The notes under the pieces were generated by a model. That model did not search any database, was not told the DNA's origin, and saw only the letters and a program-made list of their open reading frames with translations. DNA of 64,000 nt from Protoeuglena noctilucae (lineage: Eukaryota), in assembly GCA_958009085.1 (NCBI GenBank), contig OY253668.1:1364001-1428000 (forward strand), read 5' to 3'. The translations under genes were made by a program, and so were the position numbers. This document shows, one piece after another, positions 457 to 57,511 of this stretch; position 1 is the stretch's first letter; each line of letters opens with the position of its first letter.

Positions 457-1078
457 CTATTTGGGGTTCCGCAGCACCAGGATGACCGAGTCGCCTCTCA
501 AGAACATCTTAGAGATGAAGCGGTCCCGGTTGACGGGCTGAGACCCCTTCTTGCCCTTGCCCGTCTTCGGAATCTGCGATGCAGGTGCCGAGGGACCCGT
601 CGTCACGCTCTGCCTCGTGAGCCCGCTCCCCCCGGAACCCCCCCGGGCGCGGCGCGCGTCGGCAGCAACGTACGGCGCGATTCTAACGCGCATTCACCTC
701 CGTCCACATCTCCTTGACGTTCTCGAGGATCATGTTGCAGTGCCGGTCGAATGCCTTGACCCTCCCAAGCAGCTTGTGGTTGTTCCGGCAGCTCACCAGC
801 ACCTGCGGATCAATCACATGCAAAGCGTTGCCAGGAGGGCTGGGAGGGACGCCCATCGTCCGCCGGCGTGGCGGATCGGCCCTAGCTGCCACCGCGCCCC
901 CTTTCTTGAGTCTCCGGGAGCGAGCCCCGCCACGAGCGGGCCTCCGCGCCCCACGACGGCTGCTGCTTGCCTGCGAGTTGGTCTTGACGCTCGTGGTGAG
1001 CACGGAGAGAGGCCCCTTCTGGAACGAATCGATCTCCTCCTTCTCCAGGTCGTCGACCGTCTTCTGGGCCGTCGCCAT
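457..1078 (-). CDS. SmD2: Small nuclear ribonucleoprotein Sm D2 (3 exons)
   Basis: [59 protein letters not shown]...[23 protein letters not shown] is the canonical SmD2 sequence; intron 1 (970-803) is GC-AG. Confidence 0.97.
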
Positions 1079-1745
1079 CCCGCCTCCCTTTGCGCGGGGC
1101 ACTGGGGTCGCCCGAACGTACTACCAGGTACCTAGGCGCGCCTCAAGCACGGCCAGCGGGGCAAGGAATACTTTGGCCAGGGATGCGTGTGGGATGGCAG
1201 GTGGGAGGGCAAGGAGGCGACCACGGATTGACGAGGATGACGGAATGGTGTCTCAGAGGAAGGGGGGGCAGCTGTTCCGGCGCCCGTCTGTCAGACGGAC
1301 TCGTTTTGCACCGACGAAAGCCGCCTGCGTGCTGCTTTGGCGCTTATATTGCATGTCACCTGCTCAAACAAATCGTGAGGATCCGTTGCGCTTTCCTGGC
1401 CGTCCTGGGCTTTCTTAGGACGCCTCCTGCGCACCCAGGAATCTCTAGCACAGCGCGCGCATCGTCGTTTGTTAGACGGTCTTCTAACGCACCTGCCAGT
1501 GCCAATTCCCCCGACATCCGGGCAGCCAGGGCCAAGCTTACCAAAATGGTGTGGCGCGCGCGGTGCCTCCGGCCACTGATCCACGAGCGCTCTGTCCCGC
1601 GTAGCGAACCGCACGCTGACTCTTTGTCATGCAAGGCACTGACAGGCTGAAGAAGTGATCGCCTGGATGCGGGGTTTGGGCGCGCGCTTCCCCAGATGCT
1701 GGGCCATGCTGAGCTGGGCCGCGGAACCCCTCCCCGCGCTCGCAG

Positions 1746-3014
1746 GAGCAGGAGACGGCGAAGTTCAAGTCGCATATGCACTCGCTAGCCTTCGGCGAGG
1801 CCATGCTTGCCGCAGCGCGCGACTACAAGACGGAAATGAAGGCCGCGGAGCATGCGCGGGCCGAGGCCGCCAAGGTCCGCACCCCGCGCACCAGGGCGGC
1901 CATTCGCGCCGTCAGGATGCCGAACCAGTACTTGACGTCAATACGCGCGTTCTCTTCGCAGGGCCACCGCGTGATGGACATGCAGGAGCTGGCCGACGAG
2001 CTCGCGGACGACCCGGACCTTGAGCGCATCTACGAACAGCGCATGGCGGCGATTCGGCAGGAGCAGGAGGAGAGGCAAAAGATGCAGGCCTCGGGACACG
2101 GGCAGGTCACAGAGGTGAATCACTCGCCACGCGCGAGTGCCATCCACCCACAGCGGCATGCGATGGGTGTCAGTGGTGCAAGCTCTCAGGGCGCCCAGCC
2201 CGACCGCAGCGCCGCCGCTTCCCCCGCAGGTCGAGGAGAAGGACTTTTTGGACGTAGTGACGAAGACCAGGCGCGTGGTGGTCCACTTCTTCCACCGGGA
2301 GTTCGAGCGTTGCAAGATCATGGACAAGCACCTCGTGACCGTCGCACGCAAGTACTTCAAAACCCGCTTCGTTAAGATCAGCGTGAGTGGCACTCGCGCC
2401 TGCGATCTTCCTCGCGCTACTGGCTCTGCCTCCCTGTCGGCCCCTCTGCCCGCCTCAAGTTCTGCACCGCCCCGCCACTGCCACGCCACCCACCATCCCA
2501 CCCCACTCCACGTCTCTCCACTCCCCGCAGGCCCCCGACTCGCCCTTCTTCGTCGAGAAACTCAAGGTCCGCATGCTCCCCTGCGTCGTCTTCTTCCTCG
2601 ACGGGGTGGCGGTCGACCGTGTCGTGGGGTTCGACGAGCTGGGGGCCAAAGACGACTTCAAGACGGAAGCACTCGAGGCCAAGCTCCTCGGGGCGGGCGT
2701 GGTGGAGTACGTGAAGGAAGAAGAGGTGGGTGCATGCCAGCGGAACGCTGCCACGTGGGCAGCCTGGCTGGGGTGCAAATGGCGTCGCGATGGATGGCTT
2801 GCACGCATCCGTGAGCACTCAAGCAGGGCCGTGTCATGACAGAGACCATTCGCTGCAGCCGATTGTTATTGTATCTGTCTTTGAGACCCCGCAGGACTCG
2901 GACGGGGAGGAGCGCGAGCAGAGGACGCGCATCCGCAAGGGCGGGGAGGTCGGGGGCGTGGCGGGGGTGGGCGCGGGGGCAGAGAGTGAAGACGAGTCGT
3001 CCGACTTCGATTGA
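1746..3014 (+). CDS. Phosducin-like / thioredoxin domain-containing protein 9 (PLP3-type); true start probably in a tiny upstream exon (possibly ATG at 1546)
   Basis: LAFGEAMLAAARDYK, ELADDPDLERIYEQRMAA, VVVHFFHREFERCKIMDKHL, APDSPFFVEKLKVRMLPCVVFFLDGVAVDRVVGFDELGAKDDF, acidic tail ESSDFD*. Confidence 0.9.
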
Positions 3015-3245
3015 AGGGTGCGAAGACTTCACAACACCGTGGAGACGGTGGGTCCTCTGCTATTTTGGACTGGCGGTGGCGCTGCGACCGCCCAGCAAGA
3101 GCCGGGGCTGCTACGTCGCTGCGCCCTGCTCACTCCCCGGCAACTAGCGCGCTGTTCCGTTTCGCCTCTGCACTTCGCTATCTGCCGCAACTGCATGGCG
3201 CATCTGCCCTACGCCCCGCTCGTTCGTTGCTGTGCGCCCGTGGCC

Positions 3246-6179
3246 TCACTCGGCGGGCGGCAGGTGGGCCTCGAGCTTGAAGGGCTCCCCTCGGTAGCCG
3301 TGGAAATGGTGCAGGGCATCCTGCGCCACCAGCAAGTGCCGCATCGCCACCTCGATGGCCGGCCCGTGCCGCGTGCGGTCCACGTCAGCTAAGGCCTGCA
3401 GGGAGCGAGAGAGCAGCAACAGAATACGTTCGCGTCGTTCCGTTACATCCAAATGCAAACAAAGCCATTGCCCGCAAGGCCTGCAGGACCTTCACGAAGC
3501 CCGCGCACGCTCCGCGCTCACCGAAACCCCGTCGCCTCCTTTCTCCACCCGCCGAAGGCCCCGGGAACCCGGGCAGCCGGCATCAAAAGCGCGAAGCATG
3601 GGCATGCGCGGCGGCGACGGCAGCGGCGAGTCGCTGTCCACATCCATGGCAACCACCCCCGGCCCACGCCGCGCGTCGGTCCGAGGCCGCGGCCGCGCCA
3701 GGCGCGCAGGCTGCTGCTCCCCGCTCTCCTCCTCTCTTCCATGGCCCTCTCCCCGCCTCCTCCGGCCCTCGGCGTTCCCCCCCGTGCGGCGCTTGCCGCC
3801 TGCCCTGGTGCGCGGGTGGGCCGACGCTGCAGCCCCGCTCGGCCCAGCCGGCCCGTCGGCGTCCCCTCCCCCCGACCGCCGGGCCTTTCCTTCGTACAAA
3901 TGCTGGAGCAGCAAGCGGTTCGTCAAGTCGGCCACCTGCGTGGACAGAGAGGTCCGCACTCGTTCGCACCCGACAGCCCCGCTGTGCCCACATGCCCCAT
4001 CACCCAGCAGAGAGTGCCTACGTTTTTGCGAAACTCACCCACTCGCGCTGCGCCGGCTCCAACAGGTGCTTCCCAGCGCAGTGCTCGAGGTCTTCGTATG
4101 CAAGTAGGTCCAGGCACCCGTCAAACAGCCTCCTCATGGGCGCCGCGCTCCAGCACTCCTGCGTCCCCACCAGGCCCGCCAGGTGCTCGCGAGCATGCAT
4201 GGCGGCTTCCATAAACGCGCCCCGCCTTGCGAGCTCGACGACATGCTGCGGCGAACGAGCGTGGCCAAGTGCTGGGAGTGCGCGGCACGAGGCAGTCCAA
4301 CCAAGCAAGCGCTCCCTCGCACCCAGCAGGCCAGCATGCGCCAACAGCCGCGCGTGCCCTCACCTGCGCGTGCAGGTACGTCCGCAGCGGCGCCGTCGTT
4401 GCGCCGTCCGTGGCTTCTGACGCAGACGGGCCCGGCACCGCGCCCCCCGCCGCCAGCCTCCCCGCAGCGCCGTCTCCACGTGGTCCGACCCCGTCGACCC
4501 ACCCGCTCAGCAGCGGCACGGACATCTTGCTCGAAGGGTCCGAGTGCATGGAGTGGAACTCTCCCGACGACGCCCCGGACCCCTCCGATCCCAACACATG
4601 GGCCATCGGCGTGGTGGGGACCTCCTCGGGCCAGGCGTGGACCGGCACCTCCGCCAGCAGACCCGGATATCGGGCGTCGAGGCTGCGGGGGGTCCGCAGC
4701 TTCTGCCGTGAGCCGACGGAATGATGCGAGACATTGCCAATCCATGCTGTGCTTCCAAGCATCGCAGACTTGCCTCTCCATGGCACCCATGACGTCCCCT
4801 GCGACGATCCTCTCCCGGATCTCCGCCCTCTCGTCCAGCGACTCGAGGACCAGCCTCCCCAGCACTCCCTCGGATGCCCGGGCAGGGGCAGCCCCGTCCG
4901 TGGACGCCCCCACCAGCGGCCCGTACCCCGCCGCGGAGGCGAAGGCGCGGAGTGTCTCCCGGAAGCCGTAGTGCGCGAGGTAGTCAAGGACGAGGGCGTG
5001 CACGACGCCCTGCGACAGAGGCAGGCCCTCCACGTCGCGCATGCGGCTGGCGTAGTCCTGGGCGCGGAAGGCCGCCAGGTCGAACTGCGGGAACACGGAG
5101 CCGAGACGGTCAGGTAGCGGGCGCACAGCAGGAGGACGGCGACGAGCGCGAGGAAACCACGTTGCAAAAGGGTTGCCACCGAGGCGGATGGCACCGCGTC
5201 AACAGAGCAGGCCTCCGGCGCCTGCGAAGCACAGTGCGAGGTACTTTGTCGTCACCTGAAACGGCTCCTCCCCGAAGTTGACGCGGACCTCCTCTCCCTC
5301 CGAATGCAGCCCCACCGTAGGGTACAGCTGCCCGTGCACCCCGCGGAAGGCCACGCCGAGATGCTCCCCGTTCTTGGTGAAGAAGATTTCTCCCTTGTTC
5401 TGCAATCACGCGGCCGCGGGGTCACCTCGCGCGCGTTCGGGGCGGTGCGGGGCCGCAACAAACGCGCTGGGCGTCTCCCAGGGTCGGGAGGGCCGAGGGC
5501 GCGTCGCCCTGCGCCATGGGCGGCTCGGCAGCGCGCCGTTGCTCCTGTTCTGCTCACCAGGTGCACGCCAGCCCCGACCACGTCGCCTTTGCGGAATGTC
5601 TGGCCGTACGAAGTGGCGTTCCCCGCCTCCTCGGTGCACACGGTGCCGTTCGCGAAGTAGCCGTACGAGTCCCGCTCCCAGCCGGGGGCTCGGCCGGGCT
5701 TGTGGTCCTCCGCAGCGAAGCCGATGGACATCTCGGCCCGCGAGCCGTGGTTCAGCACCCGCATCTCGAAGTAGTAGACCAGGATGTCCGTGGGGAAGGG
5801 GACGTCGGCGTGGATGACACCCACGTCGTGGTCGTGGGTCCCTTGCTCGGGGATAGCTTGGTACTGCGCTCGCAATCGACGGGCGCTCGGTCAGCGTCCC
5901 ACGGTGGCCACCGCGGCCAGCGCCCGCCGACGCTCGCCGATGCTAGCCCGCCGCGATAATCATCAGTGCAGATCCATACACCTGCCGGCTGTCGGGGCGG
6001 AAAGCGGGGTCGCACGCGCGCAGCGCCCTCGCCTTGCACTGGAGCTTGTCCTTCTTGACCTGCAGGCGGATCATGTGGCCCGACGTGTCCAGCTTCGAGG
6101 GCAGGCATATTGCCTCGCTCTGGAAAACATCGTGGAGGGACATCCCAGCCTCCCCCGTGTCGGCGGGGGCCGTGCCCAT
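3246..6179 (-). CDS. RanBP9/10 (RanBPM/GID1)-like SPRY-LisH-CTLH-CRA protein
   Basis: SPRY exons (VYYFEMRVLNHG, PGWERDSYGY, IFFTKNGEHLGVAF, LYPTVGLHSEGEEVRVNFGEEPF), LisH (VHALVLDYLAHYGFRETL), CTLH (RAEIRERIVAGDV), CRA (LLAYEDLE...LLEPAQRE). Confidence 0.9.
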
Positions 6180-6504: not shown

Positions 6505-7991
6505 ATGGAGACCTTGGAAGCTAACGCGGAGGCGCGGACGGCGGGGGCCCCGGAGCCCTCGGGCATGCTCTCGCATGGCCTCTCGGGCGTGCCCCTTCCG
6601 CGCTACGCCTTGCCCAACACGAGCCATTCCTTGCCGCAATACCTGGGCTCTGAGGGGGAAGCTATTCAGCGGTGAGCCCGCTGCCCTGGATGGATGCGGC
6701 TTCGGAACGCGAGCCCCTCGCGAAGATGGCATGCCGTGGGGTCCTCCGCTCCCGGCTTTCATGCGACCCTCGCGTGTGCAAATGGTTCATTTGTTCGATG
6801 CTTCGCTCTTGAGACTGTCCGCTTCGACAGCAGGAGGCCTGAGACGGAGGAAACGCCGCACGTCTTTAGCACGCCTGCAGGGCCTTCCACACCGGCAACT
6901 ACGACATGATTCACGCCTTGCCGGACAAGCTGGAGCATCTGTCTGTGATACGGAAACGGCAGGAGCTGCAGAAGCAGGTCCGGGACATGATGGCGATGGT
7001 CGGGAAGGACGGCTTGCTCCCATCCCAGAAGGGAGCCACTGACGCGCGCGGCCTGTTTCATGGATTCGAGTACCAGCCGACCGACTACGTGAGACAGGAG
7101 GTGGAGCGGCGCGCGGAGGTGCGGCAGCTGGACAAGGGGAAGGTGGAGGAGATTGCAGGGGGCAAGGCCTTCATCCCGAACGGCATGGCGGGGAAGGGCA
7201 GCGGGCGGCGACTCAAGGTGTGACGCTGTCCCCGATATGGGAATTGTGCGGCGCTCACAGCGACTGCACTCACGCTGCATTAACGGGTCGTGCATGCTGA
7301 AGAGCTTGCCCGCGCTTTGACGCAGTTTGAGGACATGTTTGGGGAGGAGGACTTTCGGTATCCGTACCTGGGCGGAGAGCTGGACGAGAAGGACGACGAC
7401 TTGCTGAGCGAGTCGTGGATTCAGAGTTCGTACGACCTCGGGCCTCGCTTTGCGCCCAATGGGCCAGCCGGGCTGCACGCCCCGGCCGGGGCCGTCAACC
7501 CGCCCACCAAGCGCCTCCTCCCGGAGCTCTTGGCCGCCCTCAAAGGCATCCTCGCCGCCGACTGGGAGGGCTCCGCGTTCGACCTGCTGCTGGACAGCCG
7601 CGGCCGCGTGGTGGTGCAGTTCGATCTGACCACGGTTGACAGCAGGGACGGCCTCGCCGCCTACATGAACATGCTCGTCAAGTCCAACGCCCTCATCACC
7701 AAGTACCTCGTCTCGCGCGTGCCTGAGGCGAGTGCGCGATTTCCAGCCGCTACGCTGGGGCGTGTACGGGTCGCTGGTTGGGAAAGCCCCAAGGTGCCCT
7801 GCCTCTGAATGCAGTCGTGGAACAAGGAACGGACCCCGGGCCGCGTCGACTTCACGATGCGCCCGCCGTGGGTGCCGAATGCCGCCATCAACCAGACCTT
7901 CATGCGCCTGCACCCGGAGTACGAAGCAACAGGGATCGTCAGCACGGGCGACGCGGGGGCCTCGCAAGGGCTCCATCGGGACCTGAAGTGA
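6505..7991 (+). CDS. Hypothetical protein (about 4 exons)
   Basis: Phase-compatible exons METLEANA...GEAIQR|AFHTGNYDMIHALPDKL...; LAAYMNMLVKSN...VPE|SWNKERTPGRVDFTMRPPWV...RDLK*; no family recognised. Confidence 0.6.
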
Positions 7992-8111: not shown

Positions 8112-11100
8112 CTAAACCCCGATGGGCGCCTCGGCCACAAGCCGCTGTGCTTCGAGCACACTCTGCAGCCCCACCCGCGCGTCCCTGTTGCCCGGCTCCT
8201 GCTGCAGCACGTGCCGGTAGTCGCGCTCAGCCCCCTCCCAGTCCCGCATCCCCTCACGGGCCGCCCCGCGCCTGAAGAGCGCAGGGAGGACGACAGACGT
8301 TTCAGAGGTCACCCCACGACAGCCTCGCTTTGCCTCCTCACCCGGCTCACCGCTGTGCACCCCAGACTCGCTGCAACGACAGTCGACAGCCCCAGCACCG
8401 CACTGTGACCCACCTCAGCAGCGTCTTGACGTTGAAGTCCTTGCCCAACTCGAGCGCCCGGTCGCAGTCGGCCTTGGCCTCCGCAAACCGCATCAGCTTG
8501 AGCAGCGCAGCCGCTCGATTGCTGTAGAAGGTCGGCTCGGTCGGGAGCGCTTCGATCGCACGCGAGTAGCACCGCACTGCCTCGTCGTGGCGCCCCGATC
8601 GGAACGCCTGGTTGCCCCGCTCCTTGTGCCGGTTTGCAGTCTCCCGCTGCGCACCCTCCCTGCACCCCCGTCGCAACACAACCATTCGCACTCATCCCAA
8701 TACCAAGCAAGGCTGACAACTCCACTCTAGCTGAGCATCTTTCAACCCCTCTTCTCGCTCCCATGGGTCCACACCACTTGCCCACCTCCACTCACCTCGC
8801 CCTCGCCTCCTGTGCCTCCCTCGCACGCCGCGCTTCTTGCGCCTTCTCCTCACGCACCGTCGCCCGCAGCGCCCCCCACGTCTCCTGCAGGGCCCCGTGC
8901 AGCCGTGCCGCCACGTTCAGCAGCATGCGGTCAGACCCTGCCCGGCCCACCAGGCTAATTGATACGGGTAGACCCTCCATGTTGTCCCCGAGGGGCAGCA
9001 CGACCTGTGGCACATGGGCAGTGGTGGGACGCAGTGTGACTTTCCATGTTGCGCCGTCTCTCGCGCTAGGTCCGCATGGTGGTACTACCACCATGTCGCA
9101 GTCTGCAATGCTGGTGCACGCCGCACAAACGACTCACCTGTGGCAGACCCGCCAGCCCCGCCAGGCACGTGAGGGCAAAGACGCGGTCCCGGAAGCCTGC
9201 GACGGCCTCCGCGGACGGCGGCGCAGGGAGCGGCGGGCACGGGACGGGCGGCAGGACGAAGACGCCGTTGGGTGCGTCGAGCGTGGCCTTGTCCATGGCC
9301 TCACGGACCTCGTCACGCATCTGCAGAGGCCCGCAGACGCGTGGCAGGACATTGCCCCTACACAGGCGACAGGCGCACGCGCAAGGAAACGTGTCTTGCC
9401 AGGTATCGCGCCCGTCGGCACCTACCCCACCGCTTGCGCCCGCACCCCATCCCTGCCCTCGCCTTCACAGCCCTTTCGTATACCAATCGCGACACCTTCC
9501 CTGCTGCCGCGAGCCGCCTCCGCACCGCCGGCAGCAGCCGCGCCCCGCTGTCCTTGGCAAGCTGCCCATGCTGCAGCGCCACCTCATGCCCCTGCAAGTC
9601 CATGGCTGCCCTCGCCAGCGACCGCATCACCGCAGCCCCTGGCACCTGTCCCTGAAAAGCCCGTTCCAGGTAGTGCCCCAGGGTTGGGCAGGTGGTGCGA
9701 AGGTAGGCCGGGATGTCCACCAAGAGGATGGGCACGGTCAGACCGTCTGGACGCGGGCTGCTCTCCAGCACCGCTTTGAGCGTGCCCTGCGAGGCGAGCA
9801 CGGATCGTGGTCGCAGCGCTGGTGCAGAGGTTGAATGCGAGACAAGGCGTTGCCGGCATGACCATGTGACACGGCTGCCACGGCATCGCGCCATCCCTGT
9901 GGTCGCGCTCTGCTTACCATCGCCATGGCGCTCTCGTCTCCGCCGTCGTCGGTCAGCGTTTGGAAAAGTTCGAACGGGAAGTGGACGACGTCCGGCAGAG
10001 AAGGCGGCGGCTCCTGGGTCGCAGGGAGGAGAGTGCAGCCCACTGCGCGCAAGACCTCGACGTCGCGAGCGAACCAGCCCACTGCGGGAGCGGCCACGTC
10101 CGAGAGAGCGTCGCACACAAATATCCGGGAAGCAAATCCAAACTGAAGGGACCGGCACGTGTGGCCGATGAGCCCTGCCTTGTGATGCATAACCAACCCC
10201 ACAAAATATGCGAAGCCTGGACATGCGCCGCACCTGTGTCGAGAGACGGCGACAGAGGGACCACGCCCTCGACACTCACGGCGCCGTGGGTCGTGCGGAT
10301 CCCCGGTATCCCGCAGAAGGCTGCCGGCACTCGCACGCTGCCCGCTGTGTCGGTGCCCAGGGCGAAGTCCACCAGCCCTGCCGCCACCGCCGACGCAGAC
10401 CCCGAGCTGTGAAGAGGATTACACGAGGAGCAGTCTGACCGAGTCAGGCATGCAAGGCGCGGCCACGGCACGGAGCACAGACGCCCTCACACACCTCGAC
10501 CCCCCAGGGAGCATGCCAGGGTACCGCGCATTGACGGGGGTGGGGTGGTCCGTCTCGTTGCCCTGTAGCGAGTAGGCCAGCTGGTCCATGCAGGTGTGGC
10601 CCTCGAGGGTCGCGCCCGCTGCGAGGACCCTCTCGACGCATAGGGCAGTGGATGCTTCGCCAGACCCAGCGCCCCCGGGCCTACGCTCGGCCCAGGCGGC
10701 GCACCCGTTGCTCAGGGGCTGCCCCTGCACGGACATGTTGTCCTTGACCGCAAAGCGCATGCCCCGCAGCGGGAGGCCCTCCCCGTCGGCCCCCGGGACC
10801 ACAAAGCGGCGGACGAAGGCGTTCTCGCCCGCTTTCCGGCGGGAGGCGCCGTCCCTGCGGCGCGACCTGCGGATGCACAGGCTTTCAATCATCATCTCAA
10901 TTCAATGCGATGATGTCCACGGCCATTGGCGCCGTCGCGCGGCGACCAACCCTGCGGGGCAGCAGGCGGCTCTGGCCATCACCGCGGCTCACCGATAGAG
11001 CTTCCACAGGAACATCGCGGCCACGCCGGCTGTGGCTGCGATCGCGACGACTGCAAGAGTGCCCAACCATCCGCTCGACGAGCTCGATGACCGCTGCCGC

Positions 11101-11568
11101 GTGGAATCCCGGGGCACCGAGCGAGGCGCGTCTCTGTGGGCAGCGACGGCCGCTGGGAGCGGTTATACAGGACCCCACGATGAGGAGAGCAAACATGAAG
11201 CACATATAAAGGCACGGAGGGGCATGAAGCTCGAAGGATCCCCGCCGCTGATCGGGATGGCCCATCTGCTCGGGCTGATCTCACCGTGCCCCGCTCGGGA
11301 GCCTCGAGCGCGGCTGCGAGGGACCGGAGCTGCTCATCTCCGACGACGATGCTGTCTCGTCAAGCGAGGGCGGCCCCGGAACCTGTGTCTCTTCGCTGAG
11401 CTGGGGCGTTGCAGCAGTCGCTGCATCGCCGTCCTCGTCCGGGATGCTCTGCAGCTCTTCGACAGCCCTAGAGACGTCCGTCGCAATGCTGGTTTCATCG
11501 ACTTCCTCCTCCTCCGAAGAGGAGGACCACGATTCGTGTACGTCCTCTGTGCCCGCTTCCGTCGCCAT
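8112..11568 (-). CDS. Toc64/OM64-like protein: acidic N-terminal extension, transmembrane anchor, amidase-signature domain and C-terminal TPR
   Basis: [29 protein letters not shown] (about 11065-10994); [66 protein letters not shown]...[11 protein letters not shown]...DCDRAL. Confidence 0.88.
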
Positions 11569-44311: not shown

Positions 44312-44336
44312 TATCTCTCTCTCTCTCTCACTCTCG
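44312..44336. repeat. (CT)n microsatellite in the 3' region of the MT-A70 gene
   Basis: ctatctctctctctctctcactctc. Confidence 0.6.
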
Positions 44337-46194: not shown

Positions 46195-47271
46195 ATGTCG
46201 GTGAGTGCCAACTTCGTTGCCTTTCCTTGCACGCCTCGGTCGACAGCTGGGGCAGTCGTTGCGACCTGGCCGTTGCTGGCATCGCAATCGTACCGCTGGT
46301 CACCGCGGCGGGCAGCCTCTGCATCCGAAACGCCCCAGATCTGGTCCAGTCCCCCAGTCACGGTTTCCACGGGGCCGTGCCGCCCGCGGTGGCTGCGGGC
46401 CCGAACCGGCCACGTGTCAAGTTCACTCCTGTCATGTGCGCAGATCCACACCTACAATGGGGCGGCGGTTGTCGCCATGACGGGGAAGGAGTGCGTCGCC
46501 ATTGGGTCCGACTTGCGCCTCGGCGTGCAGTTCCAGACGCTGGCGACGGATTTCCAGAAGATTTACAAGATCCACGACAAGCTCTTCCTGGGCCTTGCGG
46601 GGCTCGGGACGGACGCGCTGACGCTGGCGAACCTCTTCAAGTTCCGGTGCGGGGTCGCGAGCGCCACCGCCCCCGGTCACGCCGGGGGCCGCCCCCGGCG
46701 CGGCCTTTGCCCATGCGTCCCGCAATTCTGCGACGCCTCTTACGCTCCTCGCGCTTTCAGGCACAACCTGTACAAGCTGCGCGAGGAGCGCAACATGAGC
46801 CCCCAGGCCTTTGCGTCCATGGTCTCCAACGCCCTCTACCAGAAGCGCTTCGGGCCCTACTTCTGTGAGCCAGGTGACGTGGCCGCTTAAAGCGCCTCAT
46901 ATGGTCCTCCAGACAGCAGCGCACCCGCACTTACCCGCTATGTTTGTGCCGGATCGCCCCCTCGCCTCCCGCGCGCAGTGATCGCGGGTTTGGATGCGGA
47001 GAACAAGCCGTTTTTGACGGGCATGGACTCCTTGGGGGCCATGGAGACCTCGCCGGACTTCATGTGCGCGGGGACGGCCCCCGACTCCCTCTGGGGCATG
47101 TGTGAGTCCATGTACAAGCCAGACATGGGCCCGGAGGAGCTGTTCGAGACCATCTCGCAGTGCCTGCTCAGCGGCGTCGACCGGGACGCCATCTCGGGCT
47201 GGGGAGCCGTGGTTTACGTCGTGACCAAGGACCGGGTCATCGCACGCACCCTCCGCGGGCGCATGGACTGA
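46195..47271 (+). CDS. PBC1: 20S proteasome subunit beta type-3
   Basis: MS|IHTYNGAAVVAMTGKECVAIGSDLRLGVQ, LYQKRFGPYFCEP, PEELFETISQCLLSGVDRDAISGWG, RTLRGRMD*. Confidence 0.97.
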
Positions 47272-47387
47272 GGCCGCGGCGTTTCAGTGGCCGAGCCTGG
47301 TTGAACTCCCTCCTCTCGTCGCCCTCCTTCAACTCGCCAGCTGGACGGGCTGGCATGGCCCATACAGCGTGGCTCACAGAGTGCGGC

Positions 47388-48327
47388 TCATGGGGCACCC
47401 TTGGAGAGCACCGCCCCCTGCAGCTGCTGTATCTGCTCGGCGTGCAGCATAATCATGTTGAAGACGTTGAGCATGTCGTTGTCCTGTGCCTTGAGGTGGT
47501 CCTGCAGGCCCGCAGACGGAAGCGGTAGCCAGTCAAGCACGTGCCGCAACTCCCAGTCACCTCGCAGCAACGGTGGTGCCACCACCCACGAACACCTAGT
47601 AGTCGGAGTCGCTGCTTCTCGGCGCCGCTCACCTGTAGTGCACGCCACTTGTCTGCGTCTGACATGTCTGGGCTCGCCATCCACGCAAGACTGTCTGGCT
47701 CTGAGCCTTGGCCATCAGCTGCGGCGTCCCTCGACGAACCGGGCGGGTCCCCGGAACCAACCACGTAAGTGTCCACGGCGCTCAAGTCGAATCGATAAAC
47801 ACCTGGCCCCTGCCCTCCCACCGAGTCGATACTCGCGTGACCAAGCAGCGCACCACAAGCGCCCGACGCTGGCCGGCCCGAGCAAATCACTGCGGACGGC
47901 GAAGGCGCATCGTCGCGTTTCCGCGTTCGGGCGATCACGGCGTTCCCACTCGTTACACGCGCCGTAGAACGAAGCTGACGTGGGCACGCGCTCACCTGGC
48001 CGGACGAGGCGGCCCGAAGGCCCGGCGGGATCGGCGCGCGACTCCTCGCCACACTTGACGTTGCGGGCGAGCCTGGTGCCGACGAAACCCGGGGGCGTCG
48101 CCTCCACCTGAGCACGGGGTACACCGGCTGTCCCCACGCAGTCAAAATCGCGGGAACCAGGGCACTTACCGACCCCCGCGACACAACACAGACCTGCAAC
48201 CGACCATGCTCACCGACGAGGTGCTCGTGTCGGCCACGACAGCGCCGCACACCGCGCAAGAGAGCACAGCGACAGGCGCAGCCGTCCCCTCCCCGTCCTC
48301 TGAAAGCATCTGCGCTTCTGCAAGCAT
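47388..48327 (-). CDS. Yippee/Mis18-like zinc-binding protein with C-terminal coiled coil
   Basis: VLSCAVCGAVVADT; ICSG...ACGALLG; VYRFDLSAVDTYVVGS; C-terminal helix MLNVFNMIMLHAEQIQQLQ. Confidence 0.6.
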
Positions 48328-48975
48328 CGTCCAGGCTTCATCCCCCCGTTCAGATGGGTGCACATGAGATTGGCATCTAATCTAGCGAACAACCAGTGGC
48401 TCCTGGTCGCTTTTCCTCCGTTGCGCCTGCAAGTGCCCCTCACCACCCTTGCGTTTCATCCCCGACAGCTGACGAGGGCGACCAGAGTCAGGACCCTGCC
48501 CTCCATCGTGCTCATCGTCTTGTTGCTGCGTGCCACGCACTCTGCGCTTGCCGGTCGCCATAATAACTGTGCCTCACTGCCGCCATCAATCTCCCCCGGC
48601 CCTCTACGCAAACTCAACGCCGTCAGCTTTGTGGGTAGCGGTCATCGATCTTGATCCCACGAGCATTCGCCAGTCACCTTTTACCCTGACCAGAAACAAG
48701 CACGAATGCGGACCAATTGGCAGGCATCCCGCGCGGGTCATCGCCACGCGTCGTCCTCTCAAGCCGCAGGGGTAGCAGAGACGGCAGAGGTGGCGGACTC
48801 GCGTCCATCGATCCGGACGCGTGACGCTCGGAATCGCCGCTCGATGGGCCCATCATAGCGAGGCGGAAGCTCGATGAGTGCGGCGAAGGATGCACGGGGC
48901 GACGCGCCTAGCCACCACGGCCCCCATGACGCGGGTTTCTCCGGGCGGCTTGCGGTCGGCGTCGGCGGGAGCAGG

Positions 48976-50627
48976 ATGGAGCAGATCGTGGCTGACCCCG
49001 ACCACCGTCAGCGACAGGTGCGCTTGTATCTGCTTCTTTGCTCGATGCCATCGGTCGACCCTCGCCCCGCGAGCAGGTTGCGCGGGGGCCTGGAGAACCT
49101 GCTTGCACCCGTGCGCCCCGCAGATGCTGCGGCTGCACAAGAAAGGCGCGCTGGTGCGTTCTCTGGAGTCTCTGAAGTTCTTCGCGCTGCACATGGCCGT
49201 CACAGCGGGATCCGCGGGCCTGGCGAAGACGGCCACCGCGCCCTTGCTCCGGGCTCAGGTCGTGCTGCAGGTCCAAGCCGCCTCCGTGCAGGGCAGCCCG
49301 TACCGAGGTGCCGTGGACTACCTCCTACGCGCGAGTGGCAGGGAGGGCCTCTGGTCGCACTGGCGAGTCGGGGGCTGCTGGGGAGATGCATGCCATCGCT
49401 CCTCTCCCCGGGGCAGATGACAACTCCCATCGTTTATGCTATTTGTGGCCTCTGACGGCAGTCCCGCTCTTCACCCCACACTGCCACTCCACTCCTGCCA
49501 TGAACACGTTCTGCTTCATCAAATCAACGGATGTCGCCCACGCCCCCGCAGGCGCGGCAACGGGGCTGCGGTGCTCCGCCTGTTCCCCGAGGCAGCCATC
49601 CGTTTCTACGTGAATGACCAGTACCAGGTCCTCTTCTCCCCGAGAGACAAGGACAAGACGGAGGTGGAGACGACGGTGTTGCGCGTGGCGCTGGGGGCGT
49701 TCACGGCGCTGGTGACCACCACCCTGGTGAGGGCTGCAGCCGCGGAGCTGCGCAAGCAGACGCTCGACACGGAAGGGACAGGGCGTCATTGGCCCACTGT
49801 CATGCTGGCGGGGAGCGACTGAGCAATGCGGGCGCTGCTGCCCCTGCAGACGTACCCGCTGGACCTTGCTGCGGCGCGCCTGGCTGCGGACCAGAGCGCG
49901 AAGGGGGCAGCGCGGCTGTACCGCGGGATCACGGATTGCCTGCACATCACGTACCGGAGGGAGGGCATCCTGGGCCCCTGGAGAGGCCTGCTGCCCTCTC
50001 TCCTGGTCGTCGCCCCGTTCTACGGTACTCAGATCGGCACGTACTACACGCTGAGGTGTGAGAGAGTTGTCGCGGACCGATGCCTGCTTCCCAGGCTGGC
50101 CTGGTTTAGTCACGTGGCCGCGAGACGGCAGCGCACTGGATGGGTGACCGGTTGGCCGTGAGACCCCACCTGTTTGTTGCCGCAGCCTGGCCGTGCCGAG
50201 CGCCAATGAGGACAAGCACAAGTGGTGGTATCCTTGGGCCAAGATGGGTGCGGGGTTGGCGGCCGGGATGGCGGCTGCGGGGGTGAGCTACCCGCTTGAC
50301 ACTTTGCGGAGGCGGATGCAAGTTCAGGGGGCTCTAGGCTACTTACAGCCCGCGCGGCGGCAGGGCATGATGGCCACTCTGCGCGAGATCCTGGCCAACG
50401 AGGGGCTCCGGGGGTGAGGGGCCGCGCGATCTGCCAGAGCCGCGCAGAGCGGGTGGACTGCTTGCGGCAAGCGACGCGGCCGCCCGAGTGCTGCCTGCAG
50501 GCTCTACCGCGGCTGGACCGTGGGTGTCTGGCGAATGGCCCCGGCCGGCATGGTGCACTTCTTTGCCTACGACCTCATTCGATCCGGGGCCATCATGGTC
50601 GCGCCCAGCACCGCGCCCGCGATCTAG
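48976..50627 (+). CDS. Mitochondrial carrier family (SLC25) protein
   Basis: Three carrier repeats: TAPLLRAQ...EGLWSHW|RGN, YPLDLAAARL...YRGITDCL...EG, YPLDTLRRRMQ...EGLRGLYRG. Confidence 0.92.
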
Positions 50628-50711
50628 CTGGCGGCTGGCTCTGTCGTTGTGCCTGGTCAGTGCGTCTGCGCGTCTGTGGGGACCGTTCATGCTGTACGCG
50701 GGCTCAGACCC

Positions 50712-51287
50712 TTAGCCCTCCCCGCGCGCCTGCTCCCTCCTTTCCCGAATGCCCTTGAAGATGTCCCCGGCGTGAAGCCTCGAATCCCTCGACATGTCCT
50801 TGGCCATTTTCCTGCAGCAAGACGGAAGGCGGGGGCGGCCAGTGGCAAAAGCGCATCCCCCCTCCTCATTCCGACCCTAACAGCCTGGCTGGAGACTCAC
50901 CGCTTCTCCTCTGCGTCGATATTAAGCTCCCGCAGCTCGTGCACGCGCGACTCAGCCTCCCTGCGCGCATGCGGGGCATTGCGTGGGCACGGACTGAAGG
51001 GGAGGGCTTGCTGTGGGCCAGTCACGCCGTGCTCGCCTGACTGAGCGGAAAAAGAATGGCATGGCCGAAATCCCGAGGCCTGCCATGACGATGAGGAAGA
51101 CTTTCCATTGGTTTGGCTGCAGGGACGACGGGCGGGGTGGCGTCGCGGTGCCCGTGCCGCTCCCACCGCGCGGAGGCGCGATGCTCACCTTGGGCGGCAC
51201 CACCGTTCCCCCAACTCTCATATACCCCCCCGTGTCATGGCCGCGGAACACTGGAGGCGGCTCCCGCGGCAAGTTTTTCCCCACCAT
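50712..51287 (-). CDS. Small single-pass membrane hypothetical protein (4 exons)
   Basis: MVGKNLPREPPPVFRG...VPPK|PNQWKVFLIVMAGLGISAMPFFFRSV|REAESRVHELRELNIDAEEKR|KMAKDM...GEG*; junctions in phase. Confidence 0.6.
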
Positions 51288-51549
51288 GCGCCCCGCGGAT
51301 CCAAGCAACCAATCAGCCGTCTCACAGTTCAGTTACTGGGGCTCAACTTGCCACCTAGGTTCCGACGCAGTGCGAAAATCTCGGTCTGGTCGCGTCACCC
51401 CGCGATGTTTTGACGCAGACGTCCTGACACGGTGATTTTTGCCCGGATGCGCGAGCTTATTGGACTAATACTTGGCGCGAATGCACGCATGATATTGGTT
51501 GCAGAAGTGAGTACGCTGTCCTGTTGATTTACCAATCCCTGGGTGCAGG

Positions 51550-53074
51550 ATGGACGTCGCGAGCATCTGGGGGGGCTGGACGACGCGTCTGCTCCAAATG
51601 TGAGGCCTGCGCCACCTCAGACGAGGATCGCGGCATGGCACTTGCCGAGGAGGACTGGCACGGCCCGCCCGCTCCAGCCTTGCAGGGCTGCCACTCCACC
51701 CAAGGCTTTCCGCCTTGCGTGACCCGTATCGTGCGCTTTGCACCCGCAGCAACAACATCAGCGACGTCTGGCGCCTCTGTCTGATCGCGGCCGGTGCCTA
51801 CGGCGTCGTGCAGATCGTGCGGTCCTTGGTCGCCGACTGCGACCCGGTGCTGTGGGGCCGCACTGCAGTCCCCAAGGTATGAACTCCAAAAGGCGAGCAC
51901 AGCGATCCTGTGACGGCAGCACTGTATCCCCGCCACGTCGTATCTCTTTCTCCTAACCCAACCGTCGCAGGGGGCGTTCGCTGGCAAGGTCGTGTGGGTG
52001 ACCGGAGCGTCGCAGGGCCTGGGGAAGGTGCTGGCCGTCGAACTGGCGCGCCTGGGGGCGCGAGTGATTCTGTCCAGCCGTGGGCGCGATGCCCTGGAGC
52101 AGGTCAAAGCCGAATGCGTGTCGGCGCGGGCTGCGTCCGGGCTCGGTCCCACCGGGGGTGACGCACACGTCAGGGTACTGCCCCTCGACTTGACGAGCCC
52201 TGCGCAGGAGATCGCCAAGAAGGCCGAGGAGGCGGACGGGTTCTTCGGGCGCGTGGACGTGCTCATCCACAACGCGGGCGCATCCCAGAACGGGGCGTCT
52301 TGGGAGACCCAACCGGATGTCGACGAACAGATGATGCGCCTCAACGTCCTCGGGCCCATGGCTCTGACCAAGGCGAGTCGGCGCTTGGAGTGACGTCAGC
52401 TTGACCGCCGCATCAGCGCCACGCTCCCAGCGAGCTGCCCACATGCCTGATGCCCACCCTGCCTCAGGCCGTCGCCCGTCGCATGCGGGACGGTTGCCGT
52501 GCGGGGCAGTTCGTCGTGGTCGGGTCCGTCGCAGCCATCGTGCCTTCTCCGGGCCAGTCTACGTACTCGGCGACCAAGGCAGCGCTGCAGATGTTCCACG
52601 GGACGCTTCGTGCCGAAATGGCGGACCAGCGCATATCAGGCGAGTGGCGAAGGGTCACAGGGTGCTTCCAAAGCCGCTGCCGTGAGTGGGAAGAGGAGGG
52701 GCATGTGATGCGAACCCGGCGGCCGCTCTCTCTTCGCAGTGACGGTGGTCATGCCTGGCCCGGTCGGCACGGGACAGGGCGGCGAGGTCCGGAGCGTCTT
52801 TGGGCCGACCGGCCTGGTCAAGCAGCCCGCCGCCAAGAGATCCTCTCGGCTCGACCCGCGTCGCTGCGCCCAGCTCATGCTCGCGGCAGCGGCGCACCAC
52901 ATCCCAGAAGTCGTCATCTGCAAACACCCCGTCCTGCTGGTGTCGTGGATCACGCGATTCGTGCCTTCCCTCAAGTGGCCCCTGCTCGACTTCATCGGGC
53001 CGCGGCGGGTGAGGGCCATGAAAAAAGGCAAGGGCGGCTACAGCGTGACGGCCATGCTCAAGTCCCAGAGCTAG
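51550..53074 (+). CDS. Short-chain dehydrogenase/reductase, DHRS7-like
   Basis: GKVVWVTGASQGLG, DVLIHNAG, LNVLGP, GSVAA, YSATK catalytic motif, VMPGPV; two GC-AG introns. Confidence 0.92.
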
Positions 53075-53083
53075 AAAGCCCCG

Positions 53084-54427
53084 TCAGTTCCCCAGCCCAG
53101 TCCCCACCACGGCGTCCCTGTTGCTCAGCCGCGCAATCTCCTTGATGCTCTTGCCCCGGAACGGCGCCGGCGTGCCGTTCTCCGGGAACTTGTCGCTGCG
53201 GACCATCGCGTCCACGATGCCGAAGTCGATGGCCTCCTGCGGGCCCATGTAGTAGTCCCGGTCGGTGGCCTCCTCGATCTCCTCGACCGCCCGCCCCGTG
53301 AACTCCGCGTAAAGCTTGTGGATGACCTGCGGCCGCAGCAGGGGCAGGCGCTGCTCGCGCACTGCGCAGGGGGACTGCGCCCATCGTCAGTGCCAGGAGC
53401 TCCGAGCTGCTCGCCCGCATGGTCCTGGAGAGCTCGGTGGCCGTGATCTTGACCTCCTCCGAGGACCCCGCCACGTAGCCAAAGGGCTGGTGAATCATCA
53501 CACGCGCGTTGGGCATGACCATGCGCCGGCCCTTGGTGCCTGCAGCGAGGACCAGCGCCGCTGCGGGGGAGGGGCGAACGCGCGTGACGTGAGCTCCTGC
53601 CTCGGCAATGCATGGGATGTGGGGCGGCCTGGCGCCCCAAGCCAAGGCCGTTGGGCAGGCACCCACGCACCGGTCGAGTTGACCTGGCCGAATGCGACGG
53701 TGGAGATGGGGCACGTCATCTGCCGCATCACGTCCACGATGGCGAGCGCCGAGTAGGCCGAGGCCCCGCTGCTGTTGATGTACAGCTTGATCTCCTTCTT
53801 GGGGTCCATGCCCTCCAAGGCCAGCAGCGAAGCAACGAGGCGCGTCACCGTATCGTCGCCGATGCGCTCGCCGACGAACACGATCCGATTTCTGCGGGGG
53901 GCCAGGCGTCGTTCGCGTCGCAGGCTGCCTGCCGCGGCGCCGTGCGAGGCCGGTGGTTCCCGGGCACAGGAACACGCCCAAACACGTCCATGGCGCATGC
54001 ACCTGAACATGACGTCCTTGAAAGACGCCATCTCGCCGTCTGGGAGCCGGATGGCAGGGGCGATGATGGGCGAGTCCGCGCGGCGGTCCCGGCACAGGAC
54101 GGCGCACCTGAGGGGCGCGAGAGAGAATGTCCAGGCGTCGTACGCGCAGGAATCGAAGAAAGCGGCGCTGTGGTCGCCGTGGCGCTCCCCATCACACCCC
54201 CCTGGGGGAAACTCTGCCCCGATCCGCGCCTGTAAGACGCCGAGAGCACTGCACGGGGCCGCGAGCACCTCCCTTCAACACATCTGTCACCTTGCATGCG
54301 GCGGCGACGGGCAGGCGCCCACGCGTGTGGCGCTCCACACCCCCCCGGTCCTTGCTAGCGGGGCAGACGTCGACGACTCCCCCCTCGCCGTGCACCGCGG
54401 AGCACACGAGCTAGAGGCCATGCTCAT
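53084..54427 (-). CDS. clpP: Plastid Clp protease proteolytic subunit, ClpP6-type
   Basis: VMFR|NRIVFVGE, IKLYINSSG, AYSALAIVD, TVAFGQVNSTAAL, PNARVMIHQP, TDRDYYMGPQEAIDFGIVD; transit-peptide-like N-terminus. Confidence 0.9.
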
Positions 54428-54749
54428 GGTGGGGCTGGCGGAGGCGATGACGCGCAGAGCGCGCTGGAGGGGCGGTGGCAGCCGGTGCAGTGCTCTGCAG
54501 CCGTCTCCGTGTCCGCACGCGCGGCCAACGAGTCCTCAGAGATCAGGCGACAGGCAGGTCCGTCGGCCCCGGTAGAGGCAGGCCCGTTTGCTTCGTGACA
54601 GCGCCCGGATGACAGGGGTTTCTGGCTCGTAGGAAAGAGCTCGATTGCGCTCCCGCGTCCGCGGCACCGCGCTCAGTCGGCTCGCGGTTATCCCAAAGAG
54701 CGTGCCAGCGGCTGAGGGGAGAGTTTGCTGGGGAGAGGGGAGCGAGGCG

Positions 54750-55846
54750 ATGGCGTGCGTCGCGGCGCGGGCGCCCGCGGGCAGGGTGTCGGCGGTGGGG
54801 GCGCGGCCGGTGAGAGAGCCGCACGGCGACCCGGGCTCGCGCGGGCGGGCCTCCGCCGGGGTCCGTCGAGCAGCCGGGCGGCTTACTCGTTTTTCTTGGC
54901 GCCCGGGGCCCGCCTCGCGCCCCCTCGCTGGCCCGACGCGTTTCGTTTATCTCCCGAGAATGCGCTGCGCCGGGAGGGGAACGCCACCGGCGTCGGATGG
55001 AAGGGCACGGCCCCCGACACTCGCCGAGCAGCACAGCGACGGCCTCGCCCCGCGCCTCCTCGATGCGACAGGATGCCCGGCTTTGCTTTCGATTGGTTGC
55101 GGAACCGCGCACTTCGTCTCCGGCCCGCGCAGGTGGGGAGGCCGTTTGTGAGTCAATCGTCCTGTGTCCCGTGCGCGCGGGCTGTGGTTGCGGCGGCCGC
55201 GTCCGTGGAGGCTGAGGTCGTCGAGGCGAAGGGTCAGGAGGTGCAGGCCGTCCTGCGGTATGCCAAGGTGGGGCGGCGCGAGCGCGGGAACAATGGGTGT
55301 GGAGGGCGGCCGCAGCCTGGCCGCCCCGGGCGCCAGCCCCGCCCGCACGGCGCCCTTGCTGCGCACCGACGGCTGCGAGCGTGACTCTGCGCTACAGGGG
55401 GCTCCGAACAAGGTCCGCCGTGTCCTGGACACGATCCGGGGGCGTCCCTACGAGGAGGCCCTCATGATCCTCGAGTACATGCCGTACCGCGCGTGCGAGC
55501 CCATCCTCAAGGTGCGAGCCCCGACAGCGTGACCCCGTCAACCGCCCGAATCCCACGGGCCCGTGAATAGGCGCTCGTGGCGAGGCGGCTGCGCGGTGGG
55601 GACGTGCGGCGTGCGACCCCGAGCCATTCGCGTCGCCCGCAGTGCCTGGTGTCCGCGGCGGCGAACGCGAAGAACAACTACGACATGAAGAAGTCCAACC
55701 TGGTCATTTCCACGGCTTACGCGGACATGGGGCCCAAGATGAAGCGCTTCCGGTGCGGCGACCGCGGCAAGCCCCGGCCCTACAGCAAGCTCACGTCCCA
55801 CATTACCATCAAGGTCTCGGAGCGCCCCGCCGAGGCGCTCAACTGA
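54750..55846 (+). CDS. rpl22: Nucleus-encoded plastid 50S ribosomal protein L22
   Basis: Transit peptide [63 protein letters not shown]...GPKMKRFR...SHITIKV. Confidence 0.95.
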
Positions 55847-56125
55847 GCGCCGCGTGGGGACATGGGGCCATGTGCTAACATCCGCGAACCTCTCAATAAT
55901 GCTTTGAAACGTTTAGCCACCACCCCATCATGGCATCCATGGGGGCCGCCGCGAAACCTCACGGACACAGGAGAGGACAGCGAGCTACCCAGATGGCCTG
56001 CCGCCTGTAAAACCGAGTGGGCGCGTCCCGCAGGCTCGCCCGCAGACGTGCGGGCCTGCGCACGACAATGATGCCGGCGGGCCGGCTGCTAGAGGAAAGA
56101 CGGCTGCGCGTGAACGGAGCGTGGT

Positions 56126-57511
56126 CTAGCGCACGGGGGGAGCCTGGTTCCACTCCGCGGGGGGCTCCCACTGCAGGGGAAGAGACGGGCAGTGGTTCGC
56201 ATCGCGGTGCGCGCTGGAAGGCACAGGGCGAGGTCCACGGGCCAGCGGCGGCGAGAGATTCCCACCTGCGTCACGTTGGTCTCCGGGTGGTGGTAGTACG
56301 GGTCGCCCGACTCCTGGTCAATGTACATGAGCCACCCCTGCGGCCCCTGGGTGGGTCCCGTGTTGACCGGGCCGCCCTGCTGCGCCCCCATGCCAGCGCC
56401 TTGCGGGCCGTTGTACCCGCCCATCCCCCGACCGCCGCCGTAGCCGGCCCCTATGAAGCCCTGGGGTCCGCCGTACCCGTACCCCCCCGTCTGGGGCCCG
56501 CCGTAGCCTCCAGCGTAGCCCCCCGGGGGCATGCCGTACCCGCCGTACCCGCCGTCGAACTGCACGCAGCGGCCGGAGCCAGGATTCGCGGGATCGGCGT
56601 CCCAGGCCCGCGCAACGCCCCAAATGCGGGGAAGCCCCCCCATGCAGCGCCAGCACGCGGCCCTCACCCGGCCGCGACCCCCGCCGTAGCCCCGGCCACC
56701 GCCGTAGCCCCGGCCGCCGCCATTAAAGCCCGGGCCCCCGTAGCCCCCGCGGACGGGGGCGCCCGGCGTCCTCAGCTCATGGTCGCCGTGCGCAAAGTTG
56801 CAGCGCTCAGCGAAGCGACAATCGCCCGCAAGCCACCTGCGCGACGCGGGGCGGGGGCGTGGGGGATCCGGCCCGAGAGACCTGTCGAACCCGGTGTCGC
56901 GCTCCGAGCGGGCGATGGCGCCCGAGATAGCCTCCGAGCCTGTCGAACAACATAAATAGACCGCTGGAGGCGTGCCGAACGCGTTTGGGCCTCGGGACGC
57001 GCCACACCGGTCTTCGGGGCCCGCGGGCAGCAAGGCCCCGCGTCGCCGGGGCGCGGAGCAGGTGGACACGATCGCCGTAGATCGACAGAGACGTCGGCGG
57101 GGCCCACGCGTGGACTCGCCTGCGGCAAATCTTAGTCTTGGCGTTCTCCGCCGTTCCACGAAATCCCCTGCGCTGGAAGGACTGATCTTCCCCACCGCCG
57201 CGGCCAGCACCTGCGGGCGGGCGCCGCGGAGGGGTGATGGGCCTGCCGCGCGAGCCGTTACATCCGCACGCGGGGAGGTCGCCCGGGTCAGCGAAATCCG
57301 CCGTCGCCGCCGGGGATCCTCTGTCGATGCGCAATTGGATCCCCTGCGCCCCCGGGACGCGCCCCTTGCGCCGGCCTTTTCCCTCCCCAGACCCGAGGGG
57401 TCTCCCGGCGCGCGGGTGCGCCCACTCGGGGCCGGTGCGCAGGCCGGGGCGCGCGTAATCCCGCTAAAGCGAAGGGGACTCACCGTAATCCCCGAAACCC
57501 CCAGGATCCAT
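56126..57511 (-). CDS. CCCH zinc finger, RGG/YGG-rich, WW domain protein
   Basis: KTKICRR|WLAGDCRFAERCNFAHGDHELR; GGRGYGG repeats; GWLMYIDQESGDPYYHHPETNVTQ|WEPP. Confidence 0.85.

Follow-up and report, generated by a model that had tools for sequence, protein, structure and literature searches.

GC-AG introns, in which the donor site reads GC instead of GT, make up 1.2% of plant introns on average (Pucker & Brockington 2018, PMC6310983). Their share is far higher in some algae. Among 241 curated junctions of Emiliania huxleyi, GC-AG accounts for 56%, which the authors attribute to a genome of 65% G+C (Feldmesser et al. 2014, PMC4028052). For the pelagophytes Aureococcus anophagefferens and Pelagomonas calceolata, a preprint gives predicted shares of 14-17% and ~14%, respectively, versus 0.32% in a low-GC relative, and ascribes the high values to G+C (10.1101/2024.10.30.620910). 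Here, we analyze a 64-kilobase (kb) stretch of Protoeuglena noctilucae DNA (positions 1,364,001 to 1,428,000 of contig OY253668.1, assembly GCA_958009085.1), hereafter called the window, in which we estimate that 13-16% of the introns are GC-AG. High GC-AG shares are already known in GC-rich algae, and the window is a further case. We consider it likely that its GC-AG introns are of the ordinary U2 type and reached an unusually high share by GC-biased change at the second intron position (+2), with compensation.

A literature search found no paper discussing the GC-AG share in chlorophytes. Supplementary file 8 of the plant survey (PMC6310983) does give counts of major non-canonical introns for Ostreococcus tauri (173/2044), Micractinium conductrix (8057/114347), Chlorella sorokiniana (7090/124435), and Micromonas pusilla (496/8831). 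These four chlorophytes thus reach 5.6-8.5%, as raw annotation counts that the main text leaves undiscussed. The other chlorophyte annotations in the file stay below 2%, perhaps because the pipelines allowed only GT.

Like the U2-type GC-AG introns of plants and animals, those of the window have GC..AG termini, are removed from the mRNA, and show a stronger donor consensus elsewhere than GT introns. Compared with plants, their share is ~10x higher, and GC is as common as GT in donors with the full consensus. The window has in common with E. huxleyi a very GC-rich sequence and a canonical acceptor, but E. huxleyi is a haptophyte in which GC is the majority donor, whereas GT is the majority in the window and the organism is chlorophyte-like. 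The shares in A. anophagefferens and P. calceolata are of the same size and their G+C is also high, but these are stramenopiles with 0.19-0.92 introns per gene, whereas the window has ~5 (141 in 28 gene models). The GC-rich chlorophytes of the plant survey are probably of the same phylum, have 64-66% G+C (those in file 7) and a raised share; the share in the window, a figure that rests on 64 kb, is about twice their annotation tallies. The window itself is gene-dense, intron-rich nuclear DNA of ~67% G+C, with 65-71% in every 4-kb bin (a measure of the window, not of the genome). Genes with short exons and short introns are closely packed on both of its strands.

Evidence for individual GC-AG introns

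An earlier reading of the letters (hereafter, the original prediction) had placed 18 GC-AG introns in the window. G and C are indeed present at each of the 18 donor coordinates, with an AG acceptor in phase in all cases (18/18). A gene finder, described below, recovered 17 of these coordinates exactly, even when started from a prior of 1% for GC, and made 10 further GC calls; the remaining site, at 6032, is favored by homologous proteins. Outside evidence, by which we mean spliced RNA contigs, an RNA-derived protein, and alignments to Pfam, PDB, and homologs that run unbroken through the junctions, supports 11 GC-AG introns, including nine of the 18, and refuted none of those tested. Five introns are absent from RNA (three by RNA contigs and two by identity with the RNA-derived protein), and protein continuity alone supports six more. 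In the eight supported introns that were checked for it, none of the equivalent cut positions, i.e. those giving the same spliced product, reads GT..AG, and GC..AG is the only standard reading. The 11 introns are listed below and are named in the text by their donor coordinate (^ marks the exon-intron boundary; "predicted" refers to the original prediction and "extra" to the further calls).

803 to 970, minus strand: intron of the SmD2 gene, donor CAG^GCAAGC, predicted
4683 to 4773, minus strand: intron of the RanBPM-like gene, donor GAG^GCAAGT, extra, called by the gene finder
5864 to 6032, minus strand: intron of the RanBPM-like gene, donor AAG^GCGAGG, predicted
41667 to 41831, plus strand: intron of the NIF/CTD-phosphatase-like gene, donor CAG^GCGAGG, predicted
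45042 to 45164, minus strand: intron of the SGF11 gene, donor CAG^GCAACT, extra
45537 to 45638, minus strand: intron of the SGF11 gene, donor CAG^GCACGT, predicted; no equivalent cut gives GT..AG
49363 to 49551, plus strand: intron of the mitochondrial carrier gene, donor CTG^GCGAGT, predicted
52373 to 52467, plus strand: intron of the short-chain dehydrogenase gene, donor AAG^GCGAGT, predicted
52640 to 52739, plus strand: intron of the short-chain dehydrogenase gene, donor CAG^GCGAGT, predicted
53327 to 53414, minus strand: intron of the ClpP gene, donor CGG^GCGAGC, predicted
56837 to 57119, minus strand: intron of the CCCH zinc-finger gene, donor CAG^GCGAGT, predicted

Contigs near-identical to the window were found in four marine metatranscriptome runs (X1 to X4), with 19-31 contigs per run at ≥99% identity and 2-6 per run at 95-99%. 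They were placed on positions 38000-57999, a 20-kb region that contains nine of the 18 predicted sites. In the CCCH zinc-finger gene, contigs of X1, X3, and X4 join 56835 to 57119 and skip 283 nucleotides (nt); a one-place shift within the ambiguity of the joint gives GC..AG on the minus strand. For the short-chain dehydrogenase, the contigs of X3 and X4 match 51969-52370 and 52737-53325 with exactly 171 nt between the two pieces, a spacing that only the introns 52373-52467 and 52640-52739 fit. At 52640, use of the in-phase GTGAGT found 42 nt downstream is excluded by the length of the RNA contig. The adh_short profile also runs from position 117 to 119 across the junction at 52373. Contigs of X2 are unspliced through several introns that X1, X3, and X4 splice out (46976-47629, 52997-53464, 54550-55401, and 55641-56338). 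Hence, this run also holds DNA or pre-mRNA and is uninformative on splicing.

The SGF11 gene has two supported GC-AG introns. A protein search with its last exon gave a single match, P0001, a protein of 173 amino acids with 100% identity whose sources are jgi and Logan and which occurs only on five contigs of at most 958 nt. P0001 is identical over all 173 residues to the spliced SGF11 model, which includes the two GC-AG introns and one GT-AG intron. Since the genomic SGF11 open reading frame is interrupted and P0001 lies on a sub-kilobase contig, P0001 presumably derives from spliced RNA. For the intron 45042-45164, pieces of RNA contigs in addition stop at 45039. RNA therefore bears out part of the original junctions, namely 52373, 52640, and 57119 by spliced contigs and 45638 by an RNA-derived protein. 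The protein-atlas cluster nearest to the SGF11 protein is commonest in Chlorophyta, and this taxonomy weakly suggests that the source organism is a green alga.

The other supported introns are those across which a protein alignment continues. The exons flanking 970 (SmD2) align to residues 6-37 and 39-72 of PDB 8xi2_d, which places the junction between 37 and 38; the downstream exon carries positions 11-44 of the LSM profile, and no equivalent cut gives GT..AG. At 41667, position 63 of the NIF profile is the last residue of the upstream exon and position 64 the first of the downstream one. At 49363, the chain numbering is unbroken across the junction in four of four PDB ADP/ATP carriers, and the sole in-phase GT donor, at -9 nt, would remove three residues and scores -5.4. 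At 53414 (ClpP), the CLP_protease profile is unbroken between 137 and 138, and contig pieces of X1, X3, and X4 end at 53325. The Pfam run covered 51 junction-flanking exons and closely fixed four junctions, most exons being too short or too diverged.

The RanBPM-like gene has one GC-AG intron that was predicted and one that was not. At 4773, 15 of 17 full-length RanBPM-like homologs align across the junction without a gap, and there is no in-phase GT alternative. The situation at 6032 is more complex because the gene has a second in-frame donor, a GT at 5981 (CAG^GTGTAT) located 51 nt downstream. The gene finder picked GT 5981 over GC 6032, because it treats GC donors as rare. The 17 residues that this choice would add are absent from 18 of 18 RanBPM-like homologs in a representative library, which makes GC 6032 the better reading and means that the gene finder under-called. 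These 17 extra codons are coding-like in composition, hence alternative use of the two 5' splice sites is possible in this gene. A PDB search with exon 0 of the RanBPM-like gene gave no relevant match.

The share of GC-AG introns

To count the introns, we used a two-strand Viterbi gene finder that combines codon log-odds, donor and acceptor matrices, tracking of the intron phase, and a prior q for C at donor position +2. It was trained on the window alone, with the first splice matrices drawn from 17 RNA-confirmed introns, so that its recovery of these seeds (16/17 in the first pass, 17/17 later) is not an independent test. With q=0.01, which penalizes GC by ~5 nats, the first pass called 133 introns, 21 of which have a GC donor. 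When re-estimated with q starting at 0.01, 0.1, and 0.3, the model converged on 141-143 introns (27-29 with a GC donor) in 28 genes. The earlier count of a bit over 100 introns was therefore too low, as 141 are predicted. In the region 38000-57999, the model gives 49 introns (10 of them GC), compared with 46 joints in the RNA.

The model has faults: some neighboring genes are merged and one exon has zero length. On the minus strand, an MSS51/MYND-like gene is merged with an amidase-plus-TPR gene (8112-13110), the cyclin-L-like gene with a very long low-complexity protein (14594-25036), and a repeat protein with the TTC4-like gene (25937-30615).

To evaluate single calls, we measured the loss of score, in nats, when a given GC donor is forbidden, and scored the GT alternatives in phase from 45 nt upstream to the first in-frame stop. 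The following introns are the nine of the original prediction that come from the gene model, together with three plausible extras.

7728 to 7814, plus strand: intron of a gene of no known family, donor GAG^GCGAGT, predicted, gene model only; forbidding it costs 8.0 nats and the best in-phase GT alternative scores -3.3
17713 to 17835, minus strand: intron of a large low-complexity protein gene, donor GAG^GCGAGT, predicted, gene model only
19320 to 19475, minus strand: intron, donor CAG^GCGAGC, predicted, gene model only; forbidding costs 9.6 nats, best in-phase GT alternative -5.7
21755 to 21897, minus strand: putative intron, donor AAG^GCGAGC, plausible extra, gene model only; forbidding costs 8.0 nats, best GT alternative -2.8
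24116 to 24203, minus strand: intron of the cyclin-L-like gene, donor CAG^GCGAGC, predicted, gene model
25418 to 25528, plus strand: intron of a small gene, donor CAG^GCGAGC, predicted, gene model only; forbidding costs 4.2 nats, best GT alternative -1.6
27452 to 27535, minus strand: intron of the TTC4-like gene, donor CAG^GCGAGT, predicted, gene model only
32171 to 32350, plus strand: intron of the GT32-type glycosyltransferase gene, donor CAG^GCGAGT, predicted, gene model; best GT alternative -1.9
36224 to 36340, minus strand: putative intron of the DP transcription factor gene, donor AAG^GCGAGA, plausible extra; best GT alternative -1.0
39750 to 39840, minus strand: intron of the UTP23/Fcf1-type gene, donor AAG^GCGAGC, predicted, gene model, the least secure
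50961 to 51036, minus strand: intron of a small membrane protein gene, donor CAG^GCGAGC, predicted, gene model only; forbidding costs 5.9 nats, no in-phase GT alternative before the first stop
61733 to 61872, minus strand: putative intron, donor CAG^GCGAGA, plausible extra, gene model only; forbidding costs 4.6 nats, best GT alternative -3.2

Across the nine predicted sites of this list, the flanks of the GC donors score 5.6-6.7 nats, while their best in-phase GT alternatives range from -5.7 to +0.3 nats or do not exist. For comparison, the RNA-confirmed GT donors score -0.1 to 5.6 nats, with 13 of 14 at ≥1.7. Some of the flanking exons have partial matches. The exon upstream of 24203 matches residues 167-203 of cyclin-L2 in the PDB, where the downstream exon has no match. 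Positions 33-87 of the Gly_transf_sug profile lie in the exon upstream of 32171, and the exon downstream of 36340 begins with position 20 of the DP profile. At 39840, the Fcf1 profile (17-98) stops seven residues ahead of the junction and an in-phase GT donor located 9 nt upstream scores +0.3. Protein homolog searches with the exon upstream of the 17835 intron (17836-17958) and with the one downstream of the 27535 intron (27329-27451) found nothing. When the 134-residue exon next to 7728 was searched against metagenome contigs, it hit two loci (50% identity across 34 residues, G+C of 56%), which were rejected as unrelated because they have no tblastn match to the 28 predicted proteins.

Among the 10 extra calls, two are supported (4773 and 45164), three are plausible (21897, 36340, and 61872), and five are doubtful. 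The doubtful call at 29872 has a good GT alternative (score of 4.6), those at 12828, 9462, and 59825 lose ≤2.4 nats when forbidden, and the 553-nt GC "intron" 27601-28153 is probably a false bridge between two genes.

There are 15898 GC dinucleotides in the window and 6503 GT, i.e. 2.4x more, so decoys are a real concern and we controlled for them. When GG or GA was given the place of GC under the same self-training, 2-3 and 4-6 donors were called, respectively, versus 21-27 for GC, and the total score was ~100 nats lower than in the GC run. The donor word is also strand-asymmetric: within gene spans, there are 24 sense and six antisense copies of AGGCGAG (p=0.0014), and likewise 18 and two of AGGTGAG, while the control words are symmetric (AGGGGAG 5/5, AGGAGAG 8/8). 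The sense excess of AGGCGAG is 18, in agreement with the 17 predicted donors that bear the word. The decoy donors and the strand asymmetry argue against chance as the source of the GC-AG introns of the window.

The full model has 28 GC donors among 141 introns (20%), and the introns with outside evidence set a floor of 11/141 (8%). Our estimate lies between the two, with 18-23 GC-AG introns among ~141, or 13-16%, which counts the original 18 and none to five of the extras. The expectation that GC donors exceed 10% of the introns hence holds for the window. In the region covered by RNA, the eight supported GC introns compare with 46 joints (17%). The best-supported 15 of these 46 joints were read individually: 14 are GT..AG (on either strand) and one is GC..AG (7%), yet this 20-kb region contains the eight supported GC introns. 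These 15 joints belong to the genes with the deepest coverage. This could reflect a lower frequency of GC donors where expression is strongest, but so few joints allow no conclusion.

Donor context and the origin of GC donors

The GC donors of the window have a stronger sequence context than the GT donors. Among donors with the full AG^GYGAG context, 18 are GC and 18 are GT, versus 10 GC and 95 GT in all other contexts (p=1e-6). When the flanks are compared with the consensus at seven positions, the predicted GC donors have 5.56 matches and the GT donors 4.61 (p=4e-6). The trend is the same in the confirmed set, where the outside-supported sites (8 GC and 14 GT) have 5.75 and 4.57 matches, respectively (p=0.008). 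The difference is visible at +4, with A in 26 of 27 GC donors versus 69 of 114 GT (p=0.0002), and at -2, with A in 22 of 27 versus 66 of 114. As already noted in the original prediction, many GT donors are degenerate (at positions +4 to +6), and five of the 14 RNA-confirmed ones lack A at +4. In 94% of the predicted GT donors, position +3 is G (GTG...), A being rare. The median intron length is similar in the two classes (123 nt for GC and 122 nt for GT).

U12-type introns have (A/G)TATCC as their donor box. They too can have non-GT or otherwise unusual termini, but none of the 28 GC donors of the window carries this box (0/28), as all read GC[G/A][A/C][G/A/C].

Two causes had been proposed for the abundance of GC donors, a GC-biased drift at +2 and an altered recognition by U1 or U6. 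The composition of the window, the compensation, and the precedents in other algae favor the first, whereas the second found no support. In the scenario that we consider likely, the T at position +2 of donors would repeatedly be replaced by C, driven by a bias of mutation or conversion that favors G and C. This C would be tolerated, and be near-neutral, only where a normal U1 5' end can pair well with the remainder of the donor (AG^GCGAG), while donors with degenerate flanks would have to keep GT. The stronger context of the GC donors is the classical compensation pattern for mispairing of a normal U1 at +2, and the donor pattern suggests no alteration of the splicing machinery. The existence of the introns, their removal from RNA, the high share of GC in the window, and the stronger context of the GC donors are shown by the data, whereas the direction of the change from T to C, composition bias as its cause, and an unaltered spliceosome are inferred.

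Several observations weigh against this scenario. The polarity of the change and the role of composition bias are inferences. The penalty on GC in the gene finder selects GC donors with a strong context, which inflates the contrast in the predicted set. Nine of the 18 original sites and most of the extra calls come from the gene model alone, and five of the 28 GC calls (9462, 12828, 28153, 29872, and 59825) are doubtful. Only one of the best-supported 15 of 46 RNA joints is GC-AG. Finally, the share was measured within one 64-kb window, not genome-wide.

Some of these points raise the alternative that model-based calling overstates the share, with the gene finder or the choice of window exaggerating it, and that the true value is near the 5-8% of other GC-rich chlorophyte annotations. 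The floor of 8% is compatible with it, because outside support extends to 11 of the 28 modeled GC introns, and so are the single GC-AG joint among the best-supported 15, the doubtful calls, and the many decoys expected from the excess of GC dinucleotides. On the other hand, all 11 GC sites that could be tested held up (11/11), decoy dinucleotides yield just 2-6 calls, the sense excess of AGGCGAG matches the number of predicted donors with this word, and the 17% obtained in the 20 kb covered by RNA is well above such values. We thus regard such an overestimate as improbable.

The abundance of GC donors could also reflect an altered 5' splice-site machinery (U1 5' end, U6 ACAGA box, U1C, or Luc7) that reads C at +2 about as well as T. 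The equal numbers of GC and GT in the full consensus, where C looks nearly neutral, and the degenerate GT donors, including the RNA-confirmed ones without A at +4, are what such a change could produce. However, the GC donors need a stronger context than the GT donors, which is the classical sign of a normal U1, and the same or higher shares in unrelated GC-rich algae point to composition. An altered machinery therefore seems quite unlikely, and we give an equally low chance to the reading that this chlorophyte lineage exceeds every other GC-AG share known from green organisms because of changed recognition, with a U1 5' end or a U1C/Luc7 that accepts C at +2. If true, such a lineage would offer a natural experiment on the reading of position +2. 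An Rfam search of the 64-kb window returned 0 families and no small nuclear RNA gene.

GC donors might instead be kept as weak sites for alternative splicing or intron retention, their abundance being functional and not the result of drift. The in-frame tandem donors of the RanBPM-like gene (GC 6032 and GT 5981), the scarcity of GC introns among the best-supported 15 joints, and the lower usage of GC-AG than GT-AG sites in plants (PMC6310983) fit with this idea. Yet, the near-perfect flanks of the GC donors argue for efficient sites, and the unspliced contigs of X2 span GT and GC introns alike. No alternative isoform was seen at the GC sites in the contigs, which drop minor forms. Overall, we find a role as weak sites very unlikely.

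Descent of the GC-AG introns from one mobile introner family with a GC donor would explain their very uniform donors (AG^GCGAG in 18 of 28), but it is rejected within the window, where comparing the 141 predicted introns with each other by blastn (all against all, E≤0.001) produced 0 matches and the two classes have equal median lengths, and we see hardly any chance that it holds.

Consequences for annotation and further observations

The high GC-AG share of the window opens no new question and is of modest scientific interest, but it is a useful warning for annotation. In this window, roughly every seventh intron would be joined incorrectly by gene finders that allow only GT or expect 1% of GC. 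The same error may affect older annotations of chlorophytes in which GC-AG introns are almost absent. The window is likely a green-algal addition to the pattern of drift toward GC donors in algal genomes of very high G+C. It also provides a number for modeling selection at +2, since GC equals GT in the full consensus and GT is almost mandatory outside of it.

Two further observations come from the RNA contigs. In contigs of X1 and X2, position 40430 is joined to position 56667, at a distance of 16 kb, and an identical stretch of 11 other letters separates the two; a chimeric assembly across GC-rich low-complexity sequence may be the reason. The short-chain dehydrogenase gene (plus strand, stop at 53074) and the ClpP gene (minus strand, stop at 53084) are convergent, their stop codons lying ~10 nt apart. 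Because individual RNA contigs span both genes, the 3' ends of the two must overlap.

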